Shown: piece after piece, positions 8,589 to 54,882 of the stretch
Position numbering within the stretch: the first letter of the stretch is position 1
Layout of the letters: each line of letters starts with the position of its first letter
Source of the DNA: an uncultured delta proteobacterium
Lineage (GTDB): Bacteria > Myxococcota > UBA727 > VGSZ01
DNA length: 64,000 bases
Direction of reading: 5' to 3'
NCBI GenBank assembly: GCA_963775425.1
Contig: CAVZJB010000007.1
Coordinates: forward strand, 1 to 64,000
Position numbers and translations under genes: made by a program
Notes under the pieces: model-generated
What the model was told of the DNA's origin: nothing
The model's input: the letters and a program-made list of their open reading frames with translations, nothing else
Databases searched by the model: none

Positions 8589-9836
8589 ATGTCCGACGTC
8601 GAGCTGACCGTGGTCATGCCTTGCCTGAACGAGGCCAAGACCCTCGCCGTGTGCATCGAGCGCGCGCGGAGGACGCTCGAGGAGCACGGCATCAAGGGCG
8701 AGATCGTCGTCGGCGACAACGGCAGCACCGACGGCAGCCAGGAGATCGCGCGCGGCCTCGGCGCGCGGGTCGTGGACGTCACCGAGCGCGGCTACGGCGC
8801 GGCGCTGCTCGGCGCGTTCGCCGCCGCCCGCGGCGACTTCATCCTCATGGGCGACAGCGACGCCAGCTACGACTTCGCCGAGATCCCTCGCTTCCTCGAG
8901 AAGCTCCGCGCCGGCTTCGACCTCGTCATGGGCAACCGCTTCCAGGGCGGCATCAAGCCCGGGGCCATGCCCTGGAAGAACCGCTACCTCGGAAACCCCG
9001 TGCTCTCCGGGCTCGGCCGCCTCTTCTTCCGCATCCCGGTCGGCGACTTCCACTGCGGCATCCGCGCCTTCAAGCGCTCCGCGCTCGACAAGCTCGACCT
9101 GCGCTCGACGGGGATGGAGCTCGCGAGCGAGATGGTGGTCAAGGCGGCCCTGTACGGGCTGCGCATGGCCGAGGTCCCCGCCACGCTGTCACCCGACGGC
9201 CGGGACCGCCCCCCGCACCTGCGCCCGTGGCGGGACGGCTGGCGGCACCTGCGCTTCCTGCTCCTGTACTCGCCGCGCTGGCTGTTCCTCTATCCCGGCC
9301 TCGCCCTCATGCTCGTCGGCGCCGCGGTGCACGCGCTCCTGTTGCCCGGCCCCTTCAAGCTCGGCGGCGTCACCCTCGACGTGCACACGCTGTTGTACGG
9401 CGGCGCCATGATCCTCGTCGGCGCGCAGGCGCTCTTCTTCGCGGTGCTCTCCAAGGTCTACGCCGTCACGCACGGGCTCCTGCCGCCCGACAAGGCGTCG
9501 CGGAGCTGGCTGTACGCCATCAAGCTCGAGCACGGCGTCGTCGCCGGCGCCGTCCTCGTCGCCGCCGGGCTCGCGACGTCGGCCTTCGCGGTGTCGGCGT
9601 GGGCGCACCGCGCCTTCGGCCCCTACGATCCTCAGCTCGCCATGCGCCTCGTGGTGCCGAGCGTCGTGCTCCTCGCGCTCGGCGCGCAGACGGTGTTTTC
9701 GAGCTTCTTCTTGAGCCTTTTGGGGATGGGCATCCACGGCGACACGCCGCAGGTGTTCTCACACGCCGCGCAGGTCACCACCCAGGCGCGCACGGGCCCG
9801 CACGACGACGATCACTCCGGCCAGTCGGCGCCCTGA
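8589..9836 (+). CDS. GT2 glycosyltransferase (polyprenol-phosphate sugar synthase-like) with C-terminal TM helices
   Basis: VVMPCLNE, DNGSTDGS, GYGAAL, MGDSDASY, DFHCGIRAF, LRPWRDGWRHL. Confidence 0.9.
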   Translation: MSDVELTVVMPCLNEAKTLAVCIERARRTLEEHGIKGEIVVGDNGSTDGSQEIARGLGARVVDVTERGYGAALLGAFAAARGDFILMGDSDASYDFAEIPRFLEKLRAGFDLVMGNRFQGGIKPGAMPWKNRYLGNPVLSGLGRLFFRIPVGDFHCGIRAFKRSALDKLDLRSTGMELASEMVVKAALYGLRMAEVPATLSPDGRDRPPHLRPWRDGWRHLRFLLLYSPRWLFLYPGLALMLVGAAVHALLLPGPFKLGGVTLDVHTLLYGGAMILVGAQALFFAVLSKVYAVTHGLLPPDKASRSWLYAIKLEHGVVAGAVLVAAGLATSAFAVSAWAHRAFGPYDPQLAMRLVVPSVVLLALGAQTVFSSFFLSLLGMGIHGDTPQVFSHAAQVTTQARTGPHDDDHSGQSAP

Positions 9837-10651
9837 TCCACCCAGCGCTTGAGCGTCTCGATCTCCGACTGCGCGAGCAGCTTGCCCTTGCTCGGCATCA
9901 CGTCGTCGTCGTCGTCGTCGAGCTGGACGTACTTGCACAGCAGGCTCTTGCCGACGTCGCCGGGGACGATGGCGGGGCCGTCCTTGCCGCCCTTGAGCGC
10001 GTAGCTCTTCTCGTCCAGGCGCAGGCCGCCCTTCTTCTTCTCGGGGCCGTGGCACTTGATGCAACTGCGCTCGAAGATGGGCTTGATGTCCTTCGCGAAA
10101 TCGGGGTGCTCGGGGGCCTTCCCCTCGGCATAGCGGAGGCGCTGGTCGTCGGGGTCGTCGCCGTCGGAGGCGACCACCGGCCCGTCGTCGTCGTCGCCGT
10201 CGTGGCCGCCGCTGTCGCCGTGGAGGGCCTTGGTGATGTAGCCCTCGCCGTAGACCATCTCGCCGCCGCGGTGGCCCGTGAACGTCACCGCGAGCGCCGC
10301 GGCGCCCAGCGCCGGACGAAAGCCACGGCGCAACTCGGGGCGCACGTGGGCGACGAACGCGACCACGGCGAGCACCGCCGTCACGATCCCTGCGATCTTG
10401 TGCTGCGAGAGGAGCTCGAGCGTGTGCCCGCTCCAGTCCCCGCTCGCGTCGAACAACAGCCCGGTGACGACGGCGACGACGGCGCCGACGGCGCTCACCG
10501 CCAGCAGCAGGCGAATGAGCGCATCGCTGCGCTCGCTCGCGGGGCGCCGGAGCCACAACAGGTCGAGCAGCACCACCGCGAACAGCGTGGCGATGGGGAA
10601 GTGAAGCACCAGCAGGTGCGTCCGGCCGAGGAGGGCGAGGGCGGGGGGCAT
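9812..10651 (-). CDS. DUF2231-like membrane domain fused to planctomycete-type monoheme cytochrome c
   Basis: HLLVLHFPI and TGHRGGEMVYG, followed by DIKPIFERSCIKCHG..GGLRLD..MP..EIETLKRWVDQGA. Confidence 0.85.
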   Translation of the reverse strand: MPPALALLGRTHLLVLHFPIATLFAVVLLDLLWLRRPASERSDALIRLLLAVSAVGAVVAVVTGLLFDASGDWSGHTLELLSQHKIAGIVTAVLAVVAFVAHVRPELRRGFRPALGAAALAVTFTGHRGGEMVYGEGYITKALHGDSGGHDGDDDDGPVVASDGDDPDDQRLRYAEGKAPEHPDFAKDIKPIFERSCIKCHGPEKKKGGLRLDEKSYALKGGKDGPAIVPGDVGKSLLCKYVQLDDDDDDVMPSKGKLLAQSEIETLKRWVDQGADWPE

Positions 10652-47249: not shown

Positions 47250-48071
47250 CTACTGACACTCGTCGACGCCGTCGGTGACGTCGGCGACGCAGAAGACGTC
47301 GGGCGCCGTCACGTGCACGATGGCGAGGTCGGCCCAGGTCCCCTCATCGACGAGGGACGCGCTGATCGACTTGATCACGCTGCCGTGGGCGCGCACCTCC
47401 AGCGTCGCGGCGGTGTCCGTGGGCGTGATGGCGTGGTTCGAATAGTAGGCTGCGCCGACGAGGTAGTCGCCGACGACGGGGACGGAGACGTCGATGAGCT
47501 CGATCGCAGGCGCGGCGGCGCTGCCGCCGTCGACGTCGTCCTGCTCGAGGAGCGGATCGCCGGCGGTGGTGGCGGCGCCGTCCCAGTCGACGCTCGAGAA
47601 GCCCGGGACGCAGTCGCCGTAATAGCACTCGAGCGGCGCTTGACCGCCGCACGTGTCGGAGAACGGGCCGACGGCGACCGTGGTGGTGGCGGCGGTGCTC
47701 GGCGTGACGCAGAAGGGCGCGCCCTTGGTGGCGTGGATGTCGATGTCGGCGGCGGTGGTCCACGACAGGGTGAACGAGAGCACCGCGGGCTCGCCTTCGC
47801 CTTCGCCTTCGCCCTCGCCTTCGCCCTCGCCTTCGCCCTCGCCTTCCCCCTCTCCTTCGCCCTCGCCCTCGCCCTCGCCTTCGCCTTCACCGGGCTCGCC
47901 TTCGCCTTCGCCGGGCTCGCAGGTGCCGCCGGCGGCGCACAGCTCGCCGGAGTCACAGTCCGAGTCGACGACGCACTCGGCGCTCAAGCACGAAGAGGCG
48001 AACGCCGCGAACAGCGGCGCCAGCAGGAGCGCGGGGGAGGCGGGGACGAGCCGCAGGGAGATCAGCCGCAT
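47250..48071 (-). CDS. Lipoprotein with Cys-rich module, (GE)n linker and YfaP/DUF2135-like domain
   Basis: Lipobox ASSC, ECVVDSDC, GE run, LSWTTAADIDIH..DPLLEQDD..GDYLVG. Confidence 0.7.
   Translation of the reverse strand: MRLISLRLVPASPALLLAPLFAAFASSCLSAECVVDSDCDSGELCAAGGTCEPGEGEGEPGEGEGEGEGEGEGEGEGEGEGEGEGEGEGEGEGEPAVLSFTLSWTTAADIDIHATKGAPFCVTPSTAATTTVAVGPFSDTCGGQAPLECYYGDCVPGFSSVDWDGAATTAGDPLLEQDDVDGGSAAAPAIELIDVSVPVVGDYLVGAAYYSNHAITPTDTAATLEVRAHGSVIKSISASLVDEGTWADLAIVHVTAPDVFCVADVTDGVDECQ
47791..47918. repeat. Hexanucleotide tandem repeat encoding poly(Gly-Glu)
   Basis: About 20 degenerate copies of tcgccy. Confidence 0.9.
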
Positions 48072-48955
48072 TGGTCGGTGGCGGAGCCGTCGGTGAGGTC
48101 CTCGATGCAGACGGCGCCTCCGCTCTTGTGGACGACGGCGAGGTCCACCCAGAAGATGGTCGTTCCGTCGAGGGGCACGGTGCGCGTGAACACCACGGAC
48201 TGGCTCGTGCCCTGGAGGATCTCGCCGGTGACGGTCGTGTTCGGCGACGTCCCGCTGTTGCTGTAGAAGCCCGCGCCGAGGAGGTAGTCGCCGTCGGCGA
48301 GCGCCTGCACCGAGACGACCTCCGGCCCGGGCCCCGTGAGGGCGTCGAGCTCGAGCACGGGGTCGCCCGCGCTGTTGCCCGCGACGGCGTCCCACGAGGG
48401 GTGCGTGCCCGAGCTCCTGCAGTCGGAGAAGTTGCAGTCGAGCGGGGCCGCGCTCGGGCACAGCGACGAGGTCGGCCCCACGGACGCCACGTCCACGCCG
48501 ACGAGGTCGATGCAGAATTGACCGTTGGCGTCCTTCTTCGTGAAGTGGATGTCGAGGTCCGCGCTGGTGGAGTCCCACTGGATGCGCGCCACGACCGTCT
48601 GCGGGCCCGGCGGCTCGCCCACCTCGCCTTCGCCCTCGCCCTCGCCTTCGCCTTCTCCTTCACCCTCGCCGGGCTCGCCTTCACCCTCGCCTTCGCCCTC
48701 GCCCTCGCCGGGCTCCCCCTCGCCCTCGCCCTCGCCGACGCCGCGCTCGCAGACGTTGTCGATGCAGGTCTCCCGGGAGTCGCAGTCCCCGTCGCCCTCG
48801 CACTCGACGCAGAGGCCGTCGCTCGAGCAGATCTTGGAGCCGTGGCAGTCGTCGTCGACGGCGCACTCGGCGCCGCCGAACAGCCCGCAGCCCGCCCCCA
48901 GCGCCGGAAGCGTGGCGACGAGGAGGCCGCGGGCGATCAGGGGATGGAGGCGCAT
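48062..48955 (-). CDS. Lipoprotein paralog with Cys-rich modules, (GE)n linker and YfaP/DUF2135-like domain
   Basis: Lipobox GAGC, ECAVDDDC, GE run, IQWDSTSADLDIH..DPVLELDALTGPGPE..GDYLLG. Confidence 0.75.
   Translation of the reverse strand: MRLHPLIARGLLVATLPALGAGCGLFGGAECAVDDDCHGSKICSSDGLCVECEGDGDCDSRETCIDNVCERGVGEGEGEGEPGEGEGEGEGEGEPGEGEGEGEGEGEGEGEVGEPPGPQTVVARIQWDSTSADLDIHFTKKDANGQFCIDLVGVDVASVGPTSSLCPSAAPLDCNFSDCRSSGTHPSWDAVAGNSAGDPVLELDALTGPGPEVVSVQALADGDYLLGAGFYSNSGTSPNTTVTGEILQGTSQSVVFTRTVPLDGTTIFWVDLAVVHKSGGAVCIEDLTDGSATDQCG
48615..48736. repeat. Hexanucleotide tandem repeat encoding poly(Gly-Glu)
   Basis: tcgccy repeats interrupted by Pro codons. Confidence 0.9.
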
Positions 48956-49024: not shown

Positions 49025-49393
49025 TCACTGACAGGTGGTGTTGTCGTTGGCCTTGGGGTTTTGCCCCTGCGGGCACTGGTTGCCGTCGTTGGCGCACGAC
49101 GACGCGAGCAGGTCCGGACAGTCGATGTCCTGGAGCTCGCAGCCGCAGTCGCAGGCGCCGTCCCCGAAGAACTTGCCCTTGCACTGCCAGTCCCCGGGCG
49201 GCGGCAGGCACACCCGCGTGCCCGCGGGGTTGGTGTCGTCGGTGGCGACGCAGCCGAGGTCGGGGTCGTCGCATTCGCCGGAGTCCGTACACTCGAGGCC
49301 CACGTTGCCCCGTGAGGCCGCGAGCTGACAGCCGCCGAGCGCCGCGAGGGTGCCTGCCGTGAGCACGGCGAGGAGCAGGGTGAGCGTCTTCAT
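49025..49393 (-). CDS. Small Cys-rich lipoprotein
   Basis: MKTLTLLLAVL..LGGC, CDCGC motif. ATGA overlap with the upstream gene. Confidence 0.75.
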   Translation of the reverse strand: MKTLTLLLAVLTAGTLAALGGCQLAASRGNVGLECTDSGECDDPDLGCVATDDTNPAGTRVCLPPPGDWQCKGKFFGDGACDCGCELQDIDCPDLLASSCANDGNQCPQGQNPKANDNTTCQ

Positions 49394-50919
49394 CGCGCGT
49401 CCTCCCCGTCTTGTTCCGTGGGCTCCGCGGACGCGCCCCCGGCGATGCCCCAGATCAGGCCGGTGACCACGAGCGCCACACCGAGGCCGGCGACGCCGGC
49501 GCCGGTGCCGAACACCACGCGCCCCGTGGGGATGCCGGTGCCGTTGCCGCCGGTGCCGTCCCAGGCGTCCGACGCGTTGTTCACCTTGAGGCGAAGATCG
49601 CGCGCGTCGTCGGCGACCTTGGCGCGGTCGACGTCGCTGCTCTTCTTCACGTAGTCGCTCGCGAGCTTGCCGTCGTTGGCGAGCTCGGGGCAGTCCGTGG
49701 AGCCGAACGACCCGCGGCACAGCCTCACGTAGTCGAAGTACGGCAGCGCCCCCCACACGCCCGCGGCCGCGCCGCCCGCCGTGAGAGCGGCGCCGATGCC
49801 GAGCGTGATCCAGCCGCCGACGCCCCCGCCGCCCTTTTGCTGCGGCGCCTCCGCCGCGGGCTGGTGCTCGCGCTCGAGCGGCTCGATGCGGGTGTCCGTG
49901 TGCGCGGGCTCCGGCGTCGTCGCCGGTCCCGTCGTCGTCGTCGCCGGACCGGTCTCCGCCGGACCGGTCTCCGCCGGGCCCGTCGTCGCAGGGCCCGTCG
50001 TCTCTGGGCCCGTCGTCTCTGGGCCCGTCGTCTCCGGGCCCGGCGTCTCCGGGCCCGTCGTCTCCGGGCCCGTCGTCGCCGGGCCCGTCGTCTCCGGGCC
50101 CGGCGGCAGCGACTCCTTGCTGCACGCGTTGGCCATGGCGCTCGACGCGATCTTGCCGTCGCCGTGGGGGGACTCCACCAGCGTCCACTGCGGGCCGCGC
50201 GACTTGATGTTGATGGTGGCGCCGAACTCCAGCGTCTTCCACTGCCCCTTCGAGAACATCTTCACGGGCTTCTGCAGCGTGCACAGCTCCGACGTCCCCG
50301 TCTCCTCGGGGGGCGGCGGCGGTGGCGCCACCACCACAGGCGGCGGAGGCGGCGGCGGCGGAGGCGGAGGCGGAGGCGGCGGCGGCGGAGGACGCGTCAC
50401 CACCGGCGGCGGCGGCGTGACCACCGGCGGCGGCGGCGGGCGCGACGACGGGCGGCCACCGGTGCACGTGGCCGGGCAACTGTCGCCGCTTTGGACGTTT
50501 CCGTCGTCGCAGGTCTCGCCGCGCTCGATGAGGCCGTTGCCGCACTCGGCCCGCGGCACCCCGCACGCGCTCCCGCCCCCGCCGCGTTGGATGAGCTTCT
50601 CGAGGGCGGTGATCGACGTCTGCACCTCGCGCGCGCGCCGGTGGTGCGGCGCCCGCGAGAGCACGGTCTTGTACAGGCTGAGCGCGCGCACGCGGTCGTC
50701 CGCGAACTGCGCCGCGTCCGCGGCCTGCAGCGCCCACTCGGGGTTCGGATCGACCTTGTCGAGCTCGGTGTACAAAAAGACCGCCTCGCACCAGCGCTCC
50801 TTGAGGAGCGCGCGCTCGGCTGCCGCCTTGTGCGCCTTCAGGTTCTGCCCGAAGGCCGGCAAGGAGAGCGCGGCGGCGACGACGACGATCAGAGCGGGGA
50901 GGGACCGGCGAAAGAACAT
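49390..50919 (-). CDS. Secreted protein: TPR-like helices, myxobacterial Cys-rich repeat, poly-Pro, SH3-like domain, (ETTGP)n stalk, C-terminal hairpin
   Basis: ATG at 50919, CGNGLIERGETCDDGN..GDSCPATC, long Pro run, GPETT repeats, two Gly-rich hydrophobic segments. Confidence 0.7.
   Translation of the reverse strand: MFFRRSLPALIVVVAAALSLPAFGQNLKAHKAAAERALLKERWCEAVFLYTELDKVDPNPEWALQAADAAQFADDRVRALSLYKTVLSRAPHHRRAREVQTSITALEKLIQRGGGGSACGVPRAECGNGLIERGETCDDGNVQSGDSCPATCTGGRPSSRPPPPPVVTPPPPVVTRPPPPPPPPPPPPPPPPPPVVVAPPPPPPEETGTSELCTLQKPVKMFSKGQWKTLEFGATINIKSRGPQWTLVESPHGDGKIASSAMANACSKESLPPGPETTGPATTGPETTGPETPGPETTGPETTGPETTGPATTGPAETGPAETGPATTTTGPATTPEPAHTDTRIEPLEREHQPAAEAPQQKGGGGVGGWITLGIGAALTAGGAAAGVWGALPYFDYVRLCRGSFGSTDCPELANDGKLASDYVKKSSDVDRAKVADDARDLRLKVNNASDAWDGTGGNGTGIPTGRVVFGTGAGVAGLGVALVVTGLIWGIAGGASAEPTEQDGEDAR
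49922..50105. repeat. 15-nt tandem repeat encoding GPETT/GPATT
   Basis: About 12 degenerate copies of gggcccgtcgtctcc with no spacers. Confidence 0.9.
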
Positions 50920-50992
50920 GCGGGGGCCATTATCACCCGAAGCCTTGCCGCGATGCGACAAATGCACGTCGGCCGGGATCGCGTGAGAGGTG

Positions 50993-52441
50993 TCACGGCT
51001 GCGGCCACGTCCTCGCCATCACGTCGATGCTGTGCTCGTGCGCCCACGCGGGCTCGTCGTCGAGCAGGCGGTTGGCCTCGTCATGCGCCTCGTCGAAGCG
51101 GCCGAGCTCGGACCACGCCCGCATGGTGAGGAAGCGGGAGAGCTTGACGAGGCCGTCGCCGTCGTCGGCGGCCTTGTAGTCCTTGGCGAACTGCTTGCAG
51201 ACGTCGATGGCGTCGGCCCAGCGCTCGGCGGAGACGAGCACGGAGCAGTGGCGGAAGGCATACGTGCGCTGGAGCACCGCCGACAGGGGGTGCTTGGCGT
51301 TCCTCTCATCGAGCTCCAAGGACGCCATCTCGCGCTCGCCGTCCTTGAGCGCCTGCTCGTGGCGATGCGCCTGGTCGATCATCGCCCGCATCTGCAGGTC
51401 GATGGACTGCGCGTACATCCCGGCGGGGAACTGCGCGAGGTAGCGCTCGCCCGCCTGGAGCGCGAGGTCGCCGCGCTTGAGGATGTTGAGCGCCTGGAAG
51501 ATGTAGAACGCGGCGAGCTCCCGCGCGTTGATCACGGGCATCCCGGGCGCCGCCGGCGGCGGCACCGGCAGCTTCATCTCGTACACGCGCGAAGCGACGT
51601 CGAGGAGCGCCTGGTAGCGGAACTGCGACATCAGGCCGTTCATGGCGCTCATGGCCTGCATGTTGCGCTCCTGCGCCGGCCTCGTGACGTCGTCGACGCC
51701 GGCGAGCATGGTCTTGGTGCGCTCGTCGAGGATGGCCTTGCCCTTGCGCGCGTACCGGTCGAGGCGGCTCTCGAGGGCGCGCAGGTCGTAGAGCGCGTAG
51801 TGGAAGTCGGGGTCGAGGTCGAGGGCGCGCCTGAGGTGCTCCATCTTCTCGGTGTCCGACGCGGGCTGCAGGCTCAAGGCGTAGGCCTTGTACGCGTCCA
51901 GCGTGCGCTGCTTGTTCCTGGGCTTCCGCTTGTGGACCGGCGGGAGCTTGAGGAGGCGTCCGACGACGCTGTCCTGGAGCGTGAAGATCTCCGTGAGCGG
52001 CCCGGTGACCTTGGCGGTGGTGTCGACGACGCCGGTCTCGACGACGACGAGCCGGGCGGTGATGCGCACCTGATTGCCGGCCTTCTGGAAGCCCCCGACG
52101 ACCACGTGCGTGGCGCCCACGAGCTTGCCTGCGGCGGCGGCGGTGCTCTCGTCGGTGCCGGCCTTCTTCTGGAGCGCGATCTCGGCCAGCGCCTCATCGA
52201 TCTGGTCGCGCTCGACGACGGAGCGGTGCGCGGTCTTCAGGTCGCTGATCATGGTCTCGGCGATGCCGAGACGCAGCCAGTCGAGCGAAGGCTCCGCGTT
52301 CAGGTTCTTGAACGGCAGCACCGCCAACCGCGCCGCCCCCGCCTCCGCCAGCTCCTCGGGGTGCCCTCCCTCGAGATCCGGCGCGCGCTCTCCCGGCGCG
52401 GTCGTCATCGCGAGCAGGCCCACGACGGCAAAGGCGATCAC
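50993..52441 (-). CDS. Secreted CsgG/TolB_N-like domain plus TPR protein
   Basis: GTGA overlap with the upstream gene, signal-like N-terminus, LAVLPFKNL..GIAETMISDL..VVERDQI..GKLVGA..RITARLV, helical TPR-like C-terminus. Confidence 0.75.
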   Translation of the reverse strand: MIAFAVVGLLAMTTAPGERAPDLEGGHPEELAEAGAARLAVLPFKNLNAEPSLDWLRLGIAETMISDLKTAHRSVVERDQIDEALAEIALQKKAGTDESTAAAAGKLVGATHVVVGGFQKAGNQVRITARLVVVETGVVDTTAKVTGPLTEIFTLQDSVVGRLLKLPPVHKRKPRNKQRTLDAYKAYALSLQPASDTEKMEHLRRALDLDPDFHYALYDLRALESRLDRYARKGKAILDERTKTMLAGVDDVTRPAQERNMQAMSAMNGLMSQFRYQALLDVASRVYEMKLPVPPPAAPGMPVINARELAAFYIFQALNILKRGDLALQAGERYLAQFPAGMYAQSIDLQMRAMIDQAHRHEQALKDGEREMASLELDERNAKHPLSAVLQRTYAFRHCSVLVSAERWADAIDVCKQFAKDYKAADDGDGLVKLSRFLTMRAWSELGRFDEAHDEANRLLDDEPAWAHEHSIDVMARTWPQP

Positions 52442-54882
52442 GGCCGGACCCGCGCCTTCACGTCGAGCATGGTCTTGTTCACCGCCGCCGCGAGCTTGTC
52501 CTGCAGGGCGAAGACGTCGTCCTTCTTGCCGTCGGCCTTGGCCGCCGCGAGCACCTCGCCGCTGTCGACGTCGACGAAGCGCGCGGTGAAGCGCATGTCG
52601 CCGCCGGCGACCTGGTAGCTGCCGAGGATGGCGATCTCGGCGCCGGCAATCTTGCCGAGCTGCGCCCGCGTGGCCGGGTCGACGTACTTGGTCTGCGCGA
52701 ACTCGAGCTCGCCGATGTCGACGTCGATCTGCCCGCGCTCGATGAGCTTCACGCCGTCCGCCTGCGCGAGCTCCGTGACCACCACCTCGGCGAGCCCTTG
52801 CTTGAGGTAATCGAGCGACGCGTCGGCGCCGCTGGCCTTGAAGGGGAACACGCTCACGCGCACCGGCCCCTCGTGCCGCGCCTCGCCGCCCGGCTTCGGG
52901 GGTGGAGCGGGGGCCGGCTCCCCGCGGCTCGCGAGCATTTGTGACGGCGCAGCGGCGACGCCCGCGTCGCCGGCGGCGTGTGCTTCGTCCCAGGGGTGCA
53001 AGAGCAACGCGGCGACGACGACGACGCCCGCGAGCAGACCGCCCGCCGCCCCGAGGGCGAGCGCGCTCCGGCCGCCGCCCGCCGCGCGCACCGGCGGGGG
53101 CGGCGGGGGCGCCCGCGGCATCGACACCGTCGGCACGGTCTGGGTTGGCTCGGGCGCGGGACGAGCCGGGAATTCCCCCGAGCGCGTGCGCCCCGACGAC
53201 GGCAGCGTCGCGTCGTCGGGCGGCAGGGTCGCGCGCGGGTCGCCGTAGAGCACGTACCCGGCGAACGACAGCGACGAGGCGTGCACCTGCGCCAGCGCCC
53301 GCCGCGCCCGCCGCGCGCACTCGCCGAAGGGCACGCCCGACAGCGCCGCCTCGTAGAAGCGCAGCGCGAACGACAGCGCGTCGGCGTCGGGGACGCCCCA
53401 CATCGGCGCGAGCGTATGGCGCACGCCCGAGAGCAGGAGCGCCTGCGCCAGCGACGACGCCGCCGGCGCGTCGCCGACCTGGGGATCGCCCGGGCCGAGC
53501 GCGTGCCAGCGCTCCGACGTCGACGCGTGGCAGCCGTTGGCGAACACCAGGAGCGGCGCGCTCTCGCGCATCGCCGCCGTCACGTCCCGCGCCGTCACCA
53601 CGCCGTCGGCGACGACGAAGCCGCCCTCGCCCGCGGCGCCGCCGCGCACCACGTGCCCCGCGAAGTGCAGCACCCGCGCGCGCGCCGCCAGCGCCAGGAA
53701 CTGCGCGCGATCGATGGCGCCGCTGTGGTGCACCACGCGCCCCGGCGCCGCCGACGAAAACAGCTTCTCGACGACGCGCCCCTCCTCCTCGGCGTGCGGC
53801 AGGTCCCCCGACGGGTTCGCCACGACCACGATCTCGCGCGCCGACGTCGACGGCGGCGGCACCGCGGCGTCCGCCCGCGCCGTCACCATCCGCCCCACGG
53901 AGAACCGGCAGCCGAGGAAGTCGGTGCCGTCGTGCAACAGCTCCCACGGCACGTGCACCAGCGTGTCCTCGACGTGCAGCCGCACCGTGTGCCGCCCCGT
54001 TTCGCGGATGCGCTTCTGCACGCGCTCGGGCAGCGCGCGGTCGAACAGCGCGCGGCCGCGCTCGACGAGCGCCTCGACGTACGCGCCCTGCCCGCCGTCG
54101 TGCGCGAGCACCGCGAACGGCTCCGGCAGCGCGTCGATCTCCTCGAGCGACAGCGGCACGTCCGCGTACGCCTTCACCGTGCCGCGCTCGGCCTCGCCGT
54201 CCATGGCGGCGACGCGCAGCCCGGTGGGGCCGCGATCGATCTCGATGATGAACAGCTCCTGCGCCGCCGGCGACAGCGCCGCCGCGTTCGCCTTGTCCTC
54301 GGGGCGCCAGGCGACCGCCACCACCGGCACCGGCGCGCTCTTGCCCTTGGCCGCGAGCGGGCGGCGCGGCGCGACCACCGGCCGCCCCGCGGCAGGCAGC
54401 GCGTCGAGGAGCGCCTGCGACACGAGCACCTCGTCGCCGTCGGCGGCGCTCGCGACCCGGGCGGCCGTGTTGACGGTGTCGCCGAAGACGTCGTCGCCGT
54501 CCTTGAGCACCCGGCCGAAGTGAACGCCGACGCGGATGCGGATGCGCTCCACCGCCGCCGTCCCCGTCTCCTGCGCGAGCTTGTCCTGCAGCGCCACCGC
54601 GCAGGCGACGCCGTCGGCGGCCTTCTCGAAGACCGCCATGATGGAGTCGCCGATGGTCTTCACCACCCGGCCGGCGTGCTGCTTCACCACCGGGAACAGC
54701 AGGTCGTTGTGGCGATGGACGAGCGCGAGGCCCTCGATGTCGCCGCGCTGCTCGAAGTACGCCGTGGAGCCGACGATGTCCGTGAACAGCACCGCCATCT
54801 CCACGGCGTGCCGCTCGAGGAGCGCGCGATCGATCTCGCGCCGTTTCTCGATGAGCTCCTGCAGGTCGTCTTCGAGCGCCAC
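52438..54882 (-). CDS. Class III adenylate cyclase - CHAT (caspase-like) protease - TM - CsgG/TolB_N-like fusion
   Basis: LFTDIVGST, VKTIGDS, DVFGDTVNTAARV; VPWELL, NPSGDLPHAEEE, LHFAGH, FANGC, YVLYGDP; one TM helix; VSVFPFK..LIERGQID..GKIAGA. Confidence 0.85.
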   Translation of the reverse strand: MALEDDLQELIEKRREIDRALLERHAVEMAVLFTDIVGSTAYFEQRGDIEGLALVHRHNDLLFPVVKQHAGRVVKTIGDSIMAVFEKAADGVACAVALQDKLAQETGTAAVERIRIRVGVHFGRVLKDGDDVFGDTVNTAARVASAADGDEVLVSQALLDALPAAGRPVVAPRRPLAAKGKSAPVPVVAVAWRPEDKANAAALSPAAQELFIIEIDRGPTGLRVAAMDGEAERGTVKAYADVPLSLEEIDALPEPFAVLAHDGGQGAYVEALVERGRALFDRALPERVQKRIRETGRHTVRLHVEDTLVHVPWELLHDGTDFLGCRFSVGRMVTARADAAVPPPSTSAREIVVVANPSGDLPHAEEEGRVVEKLFSSAAPGRVVHHSGAIDRAQFLALAARARVLHFAGHVVRGGAAGEGGFVVADGVVTARDVTAAMRESAPLLVFANGCHASTSERWHALGPGDPQVGDAPAASSLAQALLLSGVRHTLAPMWGVPDADALSFALRFYEAALSGVPFGECARRARRALAQVHASSLSFAGYVLYGDPRATLPPDDATLPSSGRTRSGEFPARPAPEPTQTVPTVSMPRAPPPPPPVRAAGGGRSALALGAAGGLLAGVVVVAALLLHPWDEAHAAGDAGVAAAPSQMLASRGEPAPAPPPKPGGEARHEGPVRVSVFPFKASGADASLDYLKQGLAEVVVTELAQADGVKLIERGQIDVDIGELEFAQTKYVDPATRAQLGKIAGAEIAILGSYQVAGGDMRFTARFVDVDSGEVLAAAKADGKKDDVFALQDKLAAAVNKTMLDVKARVRP

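Follow-up and report, generated by a model that had tools for sequence, protein, structure and literature searches.

A cyclase-CHAT protease receptor encoded in tandem with a predicted exported TolB-N-like partner in an uncultured member of the Myxococcota

Can a single bacterial membrane receptor carry both a nucleotide cyclase and a caspase-like protease, and if so, what might the two do together? The question is raised by two overlapping genes, here termed A and B, on a contig from an uncultured delta proteobacterium (GTDB lineage Bacteria; Myxococcota; UBA727; VGSZ01; assembly GCA_963775425.1, contig CAVZJB010000007.1), of which the first 64,000 nucleotides (the window, about 70% G+C) were analysed. 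A preliminary description of this DNA had read gene A as an intact class III adenylate cyclase joined to a CHAT protease, one membrane helix and a CsgG/TolB_N-like domain, and gene B as a secreted protein with a paralogous domain followed by tetratricopeptide repeats (TPRs). Translation of the open reading frames and direct reading of the DNA place both genes and their GTGA overlap exactly where they had been put (Table 1). We find that A and B are a real, uncharacterised variant of the receptor cyclases and CHAT signalling proteases.

Both receptor cyclases and CHAT or caspase-like proteases are familiar on their own; a receptor with the two together is undescribed in the literature searched. 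The preliminary description had named no characterised system with this architecture, and a full-text literature search (subscription-only papers and supplements lay outside it) likewise returned none, neither a cyclase-CHAT receptor nor a CHAT receptor beside a pair of extracytoplasmic function (ECF) sigma and anti-sigma genes. The nearest mention was of a Gemmata protein that combines nucleotide cyclase, FGS, TRADD-N and caspase domains (PMC8195603; this and the other papers are cited here for excerpts of their text).

The N-terminal enzyme of A is a class III cyclase. Pfam assigns Guanylate_cyc (PF00211) to residues 28-163 with 71.5 bits against a cut-off of 21.9, and the closest solved relative is the Ma1120 adenylyl cyclase of Mycobacterium avium (PDB profile match, 8.7e-45). 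Structural comparison with 5d15 gave a VIA Z score of 25.5 and a root-mean-square deviation (rmsd) of 1.6 over 161 aligned residues with 38% identity, and the class III fold is shared with Ma1120 and with the Rv1900c/LipJ cyclase domains. In the alignment of the A family, which comprised 32 members at first and then 76, K75, D79, D131, N138 and R142 are invariant in all 76, and at least 90% retain D35. The roles of these positions we take to be those of metal-binding Asp, specificity pair and transition-state Asn and Arg, partly after the Rv1625c-type cyclases. K75, D131 and A141 align (HMMER) with the K/D/A positions that separate wild-type Ma1120 from its KDA-to-EGY mutant, hence A carries the ATP-type triad. 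The N-x-x-x-R spacing of N138 and R142 is canonical in A; in Ma1120 the Asn falls two residues earlier in the alignment.

Class III cyclases form their active sites only as dimers. All the required residues are found in one chain of A, and its cyclase is thus predicted to be catalytically complete and of the homodimer type, so that the intact enzyme of the preliminary description, with its metal Asp residues, ATP-type Lys/Asp and N..R pair, stands. Its position within the protein is unusual, as it occupies the extreme N-terminus of a membrane receptor with the protease next in line, a reversal of the usual order in which the sensor lies upstream of the cyclase. Membership of the putative peptide modification system cyclases (TIGR04510) was rejected, the score being 43.4 bits against a cut-off of 400 and confined to the cyclase part; NCBIfam gave nothing above any cut-off on either A or B.

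The second enzyme of A is a CHAT domain (PF12770; residues 274-548, 97.1 bits against a cut-off of 24). H406, H410, N449 and C451 are invariant in all 76 family members, and the codons of H410 and C451 coincide with the catalytic His and Cys located in the preliminary description. In the AlphaFold model of A (predicted local distance difference test score, pLDDT, 84.7; predicted template modelling score, pTM, 0.71; cytoplasmic part mostly above a pLDDT of 90), H410 follows strand 402-408 within a G-H pair and C451 follows strand 445-449 within a G-C pair. Model residues 205-557 match the separase protease domain 5fby with a VIA Z score of 25.7 (302 aligned residues, rmsd 3.6), and separase-securin complexes are among the best structural matches of A (5u1s, Z 24.9; 7nj1, Z 23.6). 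Furthermore, the CHAT region matches the TPR-CHAT protein Csx29 (8d9g, Z 21.9) and gingipain R (1cvr, 'Arg specific', Z 21.5). In the PDB sequence search with A the sole CHAT match was 8rot_B, a 'CHAT domain-containing protein' (2.4e-5). With the catalytic residues kept, both enzymes of A look active, as judged from the sequence. Within its own genome A is the only CHAT match, and cNMP_binding has 45 matches there.

These relatives offer some guide to what the protease may do. Separases cut after Arg in an unstructured motif and are inhibited by securin (PMC11506125). A likewise has the two-lobed caspase-like fold with a His-Cys dyad seen in separase and Csx29 (Craspase), and the regulated cut within a disordered segment proposed below for A would be similar to the cut made by Csx29 in its inhibitor Csx30, which leaves an ECF-like sigma factor free (PMC10028731). 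Unlike separase and Csx29, A has no TPR arm and no RNA-guided partner, its protease is membrane-tethered and fused to a cyclase, and its activating signal would be periplasmic. Conserved Arg motifs, described below, together with the Arg-specific structural relatives suggest that the A protease may also be Arg specific.

A further comparison is with DdvA, a transmembrane anti-sigma protein of Myxococcus xanthus with a TPR-CHAT region, which like A is a single-pass membrane signalling protein with CHAT; DdvA forms dimers and its autoproteolysis in trans has been proposed (PMC11506125). In DdvA the periplasm holds the CHAT domain, whose active site is incomplete, and the cytoplasm a zinc-binding anti-sigma domain (PMC11506125). 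In A, by contrast, the complete dyad belongs to a cytoplasmic CHAT domain, a TolB-N-like domain faces outwards and a cyclase is added. HetF, a CHAT protease of Anabaena (PMC8406250), shares the CHAT domain with A; membership of the HetF family was rejected at 14.8 bits against an NCBIfam cut-off of 1200, the match covering the CHAT part only (residues 400-537).

The membrane helix of A is the sole segment over the hydropathy threshold (19-residue Kyte-Doolittle score of 2.47), in agreement with the single helix described earlier, and it is preceded by Arg residues and followed by acidic ones. Given that the cyclase needs cytoplasmic ATP and that a single helix lies between, the C-terminal domain of A should be periplasmic.

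Between the CHAT domain, which ends in GDPR (547-550), and the membrane helix runs a disordered linker whose residues 565-619 have low model confidence (pLDDT <50). R567 within this linker is invariant in all 76 members of the A family. Position +1 always holds a small residue (S in 58, G in 9, A in 8 and T in 1) and position -1 mostly T or V (T in 53, V in 14 and M in 4, with others in the remainder), and the surrounding positions vary. Longer relatives of A carry a similar hydrophobic-Arg-small motif about 30 residues past YGDP. The pattern [TVIML]R[SGT] occurs in 54 of 115 linkers of 50%-identity representatives, against 24.1 +/- 4.3 (maximum 37) in 1000 composition-preserving shuffles. Taken together with Arg cutting by separase and the 'Arg specific' gingipain R, the invariance of R567 suggests an autoprocessing site or a pseudosubstrate, and the [TV]-R-[SGA] motif may thus be a candidate for Arg-specific cleavage or for occupying the active site in a substrate-like manner.

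Gene B was predicted to encode an exported protein. Its N-terminus is short and hydrophobic (10-residue score of 3.07), a hydrophobic stretch precedes the first strand in 72 of 76 B family members (the other four are short gene calls), and the orthologues in related loci have ordinary signal peptides with AxA-type ends. Hydropathy is thus in keeping with the secreted nature given to B in the preliminary description. The model of B (pLDDT 92.7, pTM 0.82) comprises two domains. Pfam recognises FlgO on residues 38-146 (24.9 bits, cut-off 22.6), with the CsgG and LpoB models below their cut-offs, and in the VIA-wide comparison residues 36-170 match TolB (1c5k, Z 13.8, rmsd 2.2, 118 aligned residues), PelC (5t10, Z 11.4), LpoB (2mii, Z 11.2) and CsgG (6lqh, Z 9.9). 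Residues 177-477 consist of helices only and match the TPR domain of YbgF (2xev, Z 13.1) and BamD (3qky, Z 12.3), values at the edge of what can be read as more than a common arrangement, as helical repeats with Z below about 13 may share no more than that. The TPRs proposed earlier are thus visible at most at the level of the fold, and the Pfam TPR models stay under threshold (TPR_2, 15.5 against 27 bits; TPR_14, 10.9 against 23.5 bits). C399 and C415 of the helical domain are invariant in all 76 family members and would fit an oxidising compartment.

The domain shared by A and B was identified in A by CsgG (PF03783) on residues 671-755 (26.5 bits, cut-off 20.8). Residues 635-801 of A and the N-terminal domain of B are 36% identical (E 2.8e-23; 36-38% across comparisons), and the C-terminal domain of A is modelled as an alpha/beta fold with pLDDT >90. 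From this identity to B and the same order of secondary structure elements, the C-terminal domain of A is probably TolB-N-like. It shares the envelope alpha/beta fold of TolB-N, LpoB, PelC, the N-terminal part of CsgG and FlgO. Identity with the CsgG curli channel was rejected: the profile is matched over positions 7-97 of 210 in A and 42-97 in B only, the domain has about 140 residues, TolB-N scores above CsgG (Z 13.8 against 9.9) and B, unlike the channel, is without a lipoprotein Cys. Hence the paralogous domains of the preliminary description are present in both proteins, but they are nearer to TolB-N than to CsgG and are best named TolB-N-terminal-like. As known members of the TolB-N type bind quite different partners, neither ring formation nor a ligand is deducible from the fold. 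The two domains, which might have fallen on different sides of the membrane, are both predicted to be periplasmic.

The own genome holds at least four further copies of the TolB-N-like domain, and the TolB-N-like plus TPR module is also found on Ser/Thr kinases and OmpR-type regulators. In a quick maximum-likelihood tree of 73 domains, from which two rows duplicating the window's own A and B domains were dropped, the A domains form one clade (support 99) and the B domains another (support 82). The A clade groups with the domains of TPR-carrying kinase and OmpR-type proteins (support 87), and the domains of the long-form cyclase-CHAT proteins are a separate clade (support 99). Their separate clades make the A and B domains old paralogues rather than a recent duplicate within the operon.

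Is the pairing of A and B conserved? PF00211 and PF12770 occur together in 100 of the best 120 database clusters for A, and those clusters that are named come from Myxococcota or 'Deltaproteobacteria' metagenome bins. The B family comprises 85 clusters at E <=1.4e-51, followed by a gap to 1.5e-9; the two families are similar in size, and their members lie on contigs of equal reported size in the database listings. Matches to A at E <=1e-40 were found in 35 of 401 sampled genomes of the phylum (counting the unpublished genome G195). By query coverage, 20 genomes besides its own, G195 among them, have an orthologue of A, some of them fragmentary; the rest match the cyclase only. B follows A directly in 14 of 18 related loci, 12 of 15 adjacent pairs (window included) retain a four-nucleotide ATGA or GTGA stop/start overlap, and no third conserved gene was found across the related loci, A and B alone being shared. 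The conserved two-gene unit anticipated in the preliminary description is thus borne out, and wider synteny is seen only in two genomes of the same family (L110 and L111). Adjacency and overlap are good evidence for co-expression and functional coupling of A and B, not for physical contact.

Some orthologues depart from this picture. Two A orthologues contain one in-frame stop each (G161:C219:23713-26124 and G277:C3:59280-61688; TAG and TGA) and may be pseudogenes or sequencing errors; G161 is also among the genomes without B beside A. P0107, a protein of 518 residues from a metagenome contig of 2649 bases, is 84% identical to the start of the A cyclase (18% of A) and 58% identical to B over 75% of B, and represents either a deletion fusing both genes or an artefact of assembly or gene calling.

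The wider family indicates which parts of A are conserved. Residues 195-560 of A, searched against 1.84 billion representatives, gave 6710 matches at E <=0.001 and 303 at <=1e-30, and 123 of the further relatives listed were scored with our own cyclase, CHAT and TolB-N profiles. A cyclase was present in 44 of them, arranged as cyclase-CHAT-TM-TolB-N in 29 (TM, transmembrane helix), cyclase-CHAT-TM in 10, cyclase-CHAT in four and cyclase-CHAT-TolB-N in one. The remainder consisted of 77 without cyclase (CHAT-TM, 39; CHAT-TM-TolB-N, 23; CHAT only, 12; CHAT-TolB-N, three) and two with an unassigned N-terminal extension. The 77 of 123 without cyclase indicate that CHAT plus membrane helix is the conserved core and the cyclase an optional addition. 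The CHAT dyad is kept in the cyclase-less relatives too; P0228, for example, can be aligned with A from residue 195 onwards as far as the C-terminus (E 4e-54), and the His, Cys and D499 all find counterparts there. In two of the 44 cyclase-bearing representatives (P0272 and P0328) the order is reversed, with CHAT followed by cyclase, membrane helix and TolB-N-like domain. Other outside modules in the family are TPR plus TolB-N-like and DUF4384. The long forms have TPR and then the TolB-N-like domain; the idea that they are fusions of A and B was rejected, as hhalign of P0095 against the B family aligned the TolB-N-like domain only (94.8% probability, 100 columns).

A genome scan by cyclase motifs gave 79 loci, mostly generic cyclases. 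One of them, L028, is a possible long-form relative broken into frames of about 300 residues, and L041 has no open reading frame of at least 300 residues at the matched place. L101-L109, from family f8, contain frames of 1081-1272 residues with an N-terminal cyclase 42-52% identical to that of A and with the CHAT part missing; such CHAT-less long frames are present in 14 of the 18 genomes of f8.

The gene context of sister clades points to what CHAT receptors may act upon. A metagenome scan with 13 cyclase-less members yielded 80 sister-clade loci (L125-L204), in 42 of which the receptor has a cyclase. In 58 of the 70 loci that extend 750 nucleotides or more upstream, the receptor gene is immediately preceded by one for a 226-residue zf-HC2 anti-sigma-like protein, and 48 of the 62 that extend 1500 nucleotides or more have both this gene and one for an ECF sigma factor. 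The anti-sigma-like protein is soluble, a hydrophobic helix being found in none of 12 sequences examined. Between its zinc finger and its C-terminal part lies a P-[IV]-R-[GS] motif, the Arg of which is invariant in 60 of 60 sequences; the next residue is G in 38 and S in 15. Cleavage by the CHAT protease Csx29 of Csx30, an inhibitor of an ECF-like sigma factor, is a precedent for such a target (PMC10028731). A gene for an exported-looking Glucodextran_B plus CsgG-like protein lies upstream or downstream in 33 of the 80 loci. The helical domain of B gave three domain matches at E 0.049-0.2 in two of the 80 loci (L148 and L157), which we counted as none. Example operons are L138:65-6463 and L128:1916-9311; in L128 the stop of the anti-sigma-like gene overlaps the start of the receptor (3263 against 3266).

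How might A and B work together? The preliminary description had suggested that B might cluster A by contacts between their CsgG-like domains and so turn on cAMP synthesis and proteolysis alike. We infer that A is a single-pass inner-membrane receptor, in which a periplasmic TolB-N-like domain would be joined through the helix and the disordered linker to a cytoplasmic cyclase and CHAT protease. B, binding to the A ectodomain and together with it, would read a periplasmic cue, and this physiological signal would shift the oligomeric state or conformation of A. The dimer-dependent cyclase would then make cyclic AMP (cAMP) for the genome's many cNMP-binding proteins, and the CHAT protease would be unlocked towards Arg-containing sites, whether at R567 in the tether or in an unlinked substrate. 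Its first candidate target would be A's own [TV]-R-[SGA] motif, where a cut would free the cyclase-protease part from the membrane; as an alternative to self-cutting, the R567 motif would serve as a built-in pseudosubstrate. The general picture, in which A and B form a translationally coupled two-gene envelope signalling module, we would accept about as readily as doubt, and the self-cleavage step taken alone is less likely than that.

Given that the sister-clade receptors lie behind ECF sigma and anti-sigma-like genes, the logic of the family is probably that an envelope signal leads to a cytoplasmic caspase-like cut and thereby to release of a regulator, with the cyclase of the A/B branch as a second or replacement output. 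A bolder proposal is that membrane-tethered cytoplasmic CHAT proteases are the transducers of an undescribed class of transmembrane signalling. Here an outside TolB-N-like (or other) module, often with a second exported TolB-N-like protein, would trigger an Arg-specific caspase-like cut at a conserved hydrophobic-Arg-small motif. The motif would lie in a soluble zinc-finger anti-sigma factor, with an ECF sigma factor freed by the cut, or else in the tether of the receptor itself; for the A/B branch, the outcome would be release or unlocking of the fused adenylate cyclase. We put this forward tentatively, as a possibility more open to doubt than to belief.

Several observations weigh against these proposals. 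With the sister-clade queries, sigma or anti-sigma genes were found near members of the A family in none of 19 loci including the window, and a clear homologue of the sister-clade anti-sigma-like protein is missing from the own genome (best E 1.9e-5, zinc-finger part only), so the logic of the sister clades may not transfer to A and B. B is not beside A in three of the 18 related loci (L113, L116 and L119), and in L120 two B-like genes lie 5.7 kb from A on the other strand; weaker or unlinked B-like genes occur elsewhere in the genomes of all four loci. The topology of both proteins was derived from hydropathy and the charge rule. R567 falls within a stretch of low confidence in the model and is not placed in the active site, and its invariance could have a different cause, such as a part in binding or in recognition by some other protease.

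Other explanations differ in how much of the above they account for. The protease might act mainly in trans on an unlinked regulator, for example an anti-sigma-like protein, with R567 as a pseudosubstrate lock and the cyclase as a parallel output. The sister-clade gene order and the invariant Arg of P-[IV]-R-[GS] favour this, as does separase, which is held by the pseudosubstrate-like securin (PMC11506125) and whose complexes with securin are among the best folds for A, but the 19 loci without sigma or anti-sigma genes and the weak zinc-finger match in the own genome count here too, and for A and B we judge the explanation less likely than the general picture above but still a serious alternative. 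Matters are different if CHAT is a structural or dimerising spacer without activity, A a plain receptor adenylate cyclase and B an unrelated gene co-transcribed by chance. Class III cyclases with a membrane helix and TolB-like or TPR outside parts are indeed common (with names such as 'class 3 adenylate cyclase/TolB-like protein'), and inactive CHAT modules exist, to go by the incomplete active site of DdvA (PMC11506125). Against a spacer, however, stand H406, H410, N449 and C451, invariant throughout the A family and kept in cyclase-less relatives, and the 77 of 123 close CHAT relatives without a cyclase, which make CHAT the core of the family; against chance stands the overlap kept in 12 of 15 pairs. 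We regard this explanation as very improbable.

A role in anti-phage defence or programmed death, with the cyclase making an alarm nucleotide in the manner of Pycsar or of the cyclic-oligonucleotide-based antiphage signalling system (CBASS) and CHAT acting as the killing or alarm effector, is a further explanation. The A cyclase gives weak matches to PADLOC models of Pycsar cyclases (best 29.9 bits, E 7.5e-8), CHAT proteases occur in CRISPR-linked defence (PMC10028731), DdvA controls a Myxococcus defence island (PMC11506125), and the Gemmata fusion of nucleotide cyclase, TRADD-N and caspase has been assigned to conflict systems (PMC8195603). However, neither B nor the CHAT part is matched by any PADLOC model, the metabolic and secreted-protein neighbours are not those of a defence island, a periplasmic sensor with an exported partner is unlike a cytoplasmic phage sensor, and the cyclase has the ATP-type K/D pair. 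We consider a defence function improbable, and identity with a known Pycsar or CBASS system was rejected, as the PADLOC matches are limited to weak ones to PycC and no gene for a nucleotide-binding effector is conserved beside A and B.

If A and B do form an envelope signalling module, one receptor would turn an envelope cue into both a proteolytic event and a pulse of cAMP. It would then place, in compact form, a reversible second messenger and an irreversible proteolytic step under a single sensor, and would offer a starting point for learning how bacterial CHAT proteins, a large set and mostly unstudied, are connected to the cell surface. The sister-clade gene order suggests, as a hypothesis, that a cytoplasmic caspase-like protease replaces the usual site-1 and site-2 membrane proteases in ECF sigma activation. 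To our knowledge no ligand is known for the outside module of TolB-N-like domain and TPR, and an assayable output of A would help to find one.

Table 1. Positions in the window of genes A and B and of the features assigned to them.
Feature	Position	Strand	Residues, start codon and basis
Gene A: cyclase-CHAT protease-membrane helix-TolB-N-like receptor	52438..54882	-	814 residues, GTG start; open reading frame translation, Pfam
Gene B: exported (predicted) TolB-N-like plus TPR-like partner	50993..52441	-	482 residues, GTG start; translation
GTGA overlap of A stop (TGA) and B start (GTG)	52438..52441	-	Read directly; translational coupling
N-terminal helix ahead of the cyclase	54808-54879	-	A residues 2-25
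Class III adenylate cyclase domain	54304..54807	-	A residues 26-193; Pfam, VIA
Separase/CHAT-type clan CD protease region	53212..54270	-	A residues 205-557; Pfam, VIA
Catalytic dyad of the gene A CHAT domain	His410 codon 53653-53655, Cys451 codon 53530-53532	-	
Linker motif T566-R567-S568, candidate Arg-specific cleavage or pseudosubstrate site	53179..53187	-	
Single transmembrane helix of A	52999..53055	-	Residues 610-628; hydropathy
Periplasmic (predicted) TolB-N/CsgG/LpoB-like domain of A	52447..52881	-	Residues 668-812
Signal-peptide-like N-terminus of B	52391..52441	-	About residues 1-17
TolB-N-like domain of B	51932..52336	-	Residues 36-170; FlgO, VIA-wide
All-helical TPR-like domain of B	51011..51913	-	Residues 177-477; invariant Cys399, Cys415

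The neighbours of A and B encode a CoA transferase, a methyltransferase, a YbjN-like protein and secreted proteins. Directly downstream of B lies a gene for a protein of 525 residues (49390-50967, minus strand), which is kept only in the two same-family genomes L110 and L111. This protein has a membrane or signal segment at its N-terminus and a hydrophobic region at its C-terminus, and also contains a weak DUF4215 Cys-rich repeat, poly-Pro tracts and a series of T-T-G-P-E-like repeats. Beyond it, two tandem paralogous genes (47250-48955, minus strand) encode secreted Cys-rich products with long (Gly-Glu)n linkers, that of 48062-48955 having no Pfam match. The own genome also contains a second full-length paralogue of B (G000:C8:101263-102540; L124:8228-9583), which is 38% identical to B, has no A-like gene adjoining it and lies on contig C8 downstream of a gene for a Ser/Thr kinase with a membrane helix (L124:5655-7586). 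This paralogue is flanked by genes for secreted (Gly-Glu)n proteins resembling the products of the tandem pair (L124:4693-5598 and 9697-10575).

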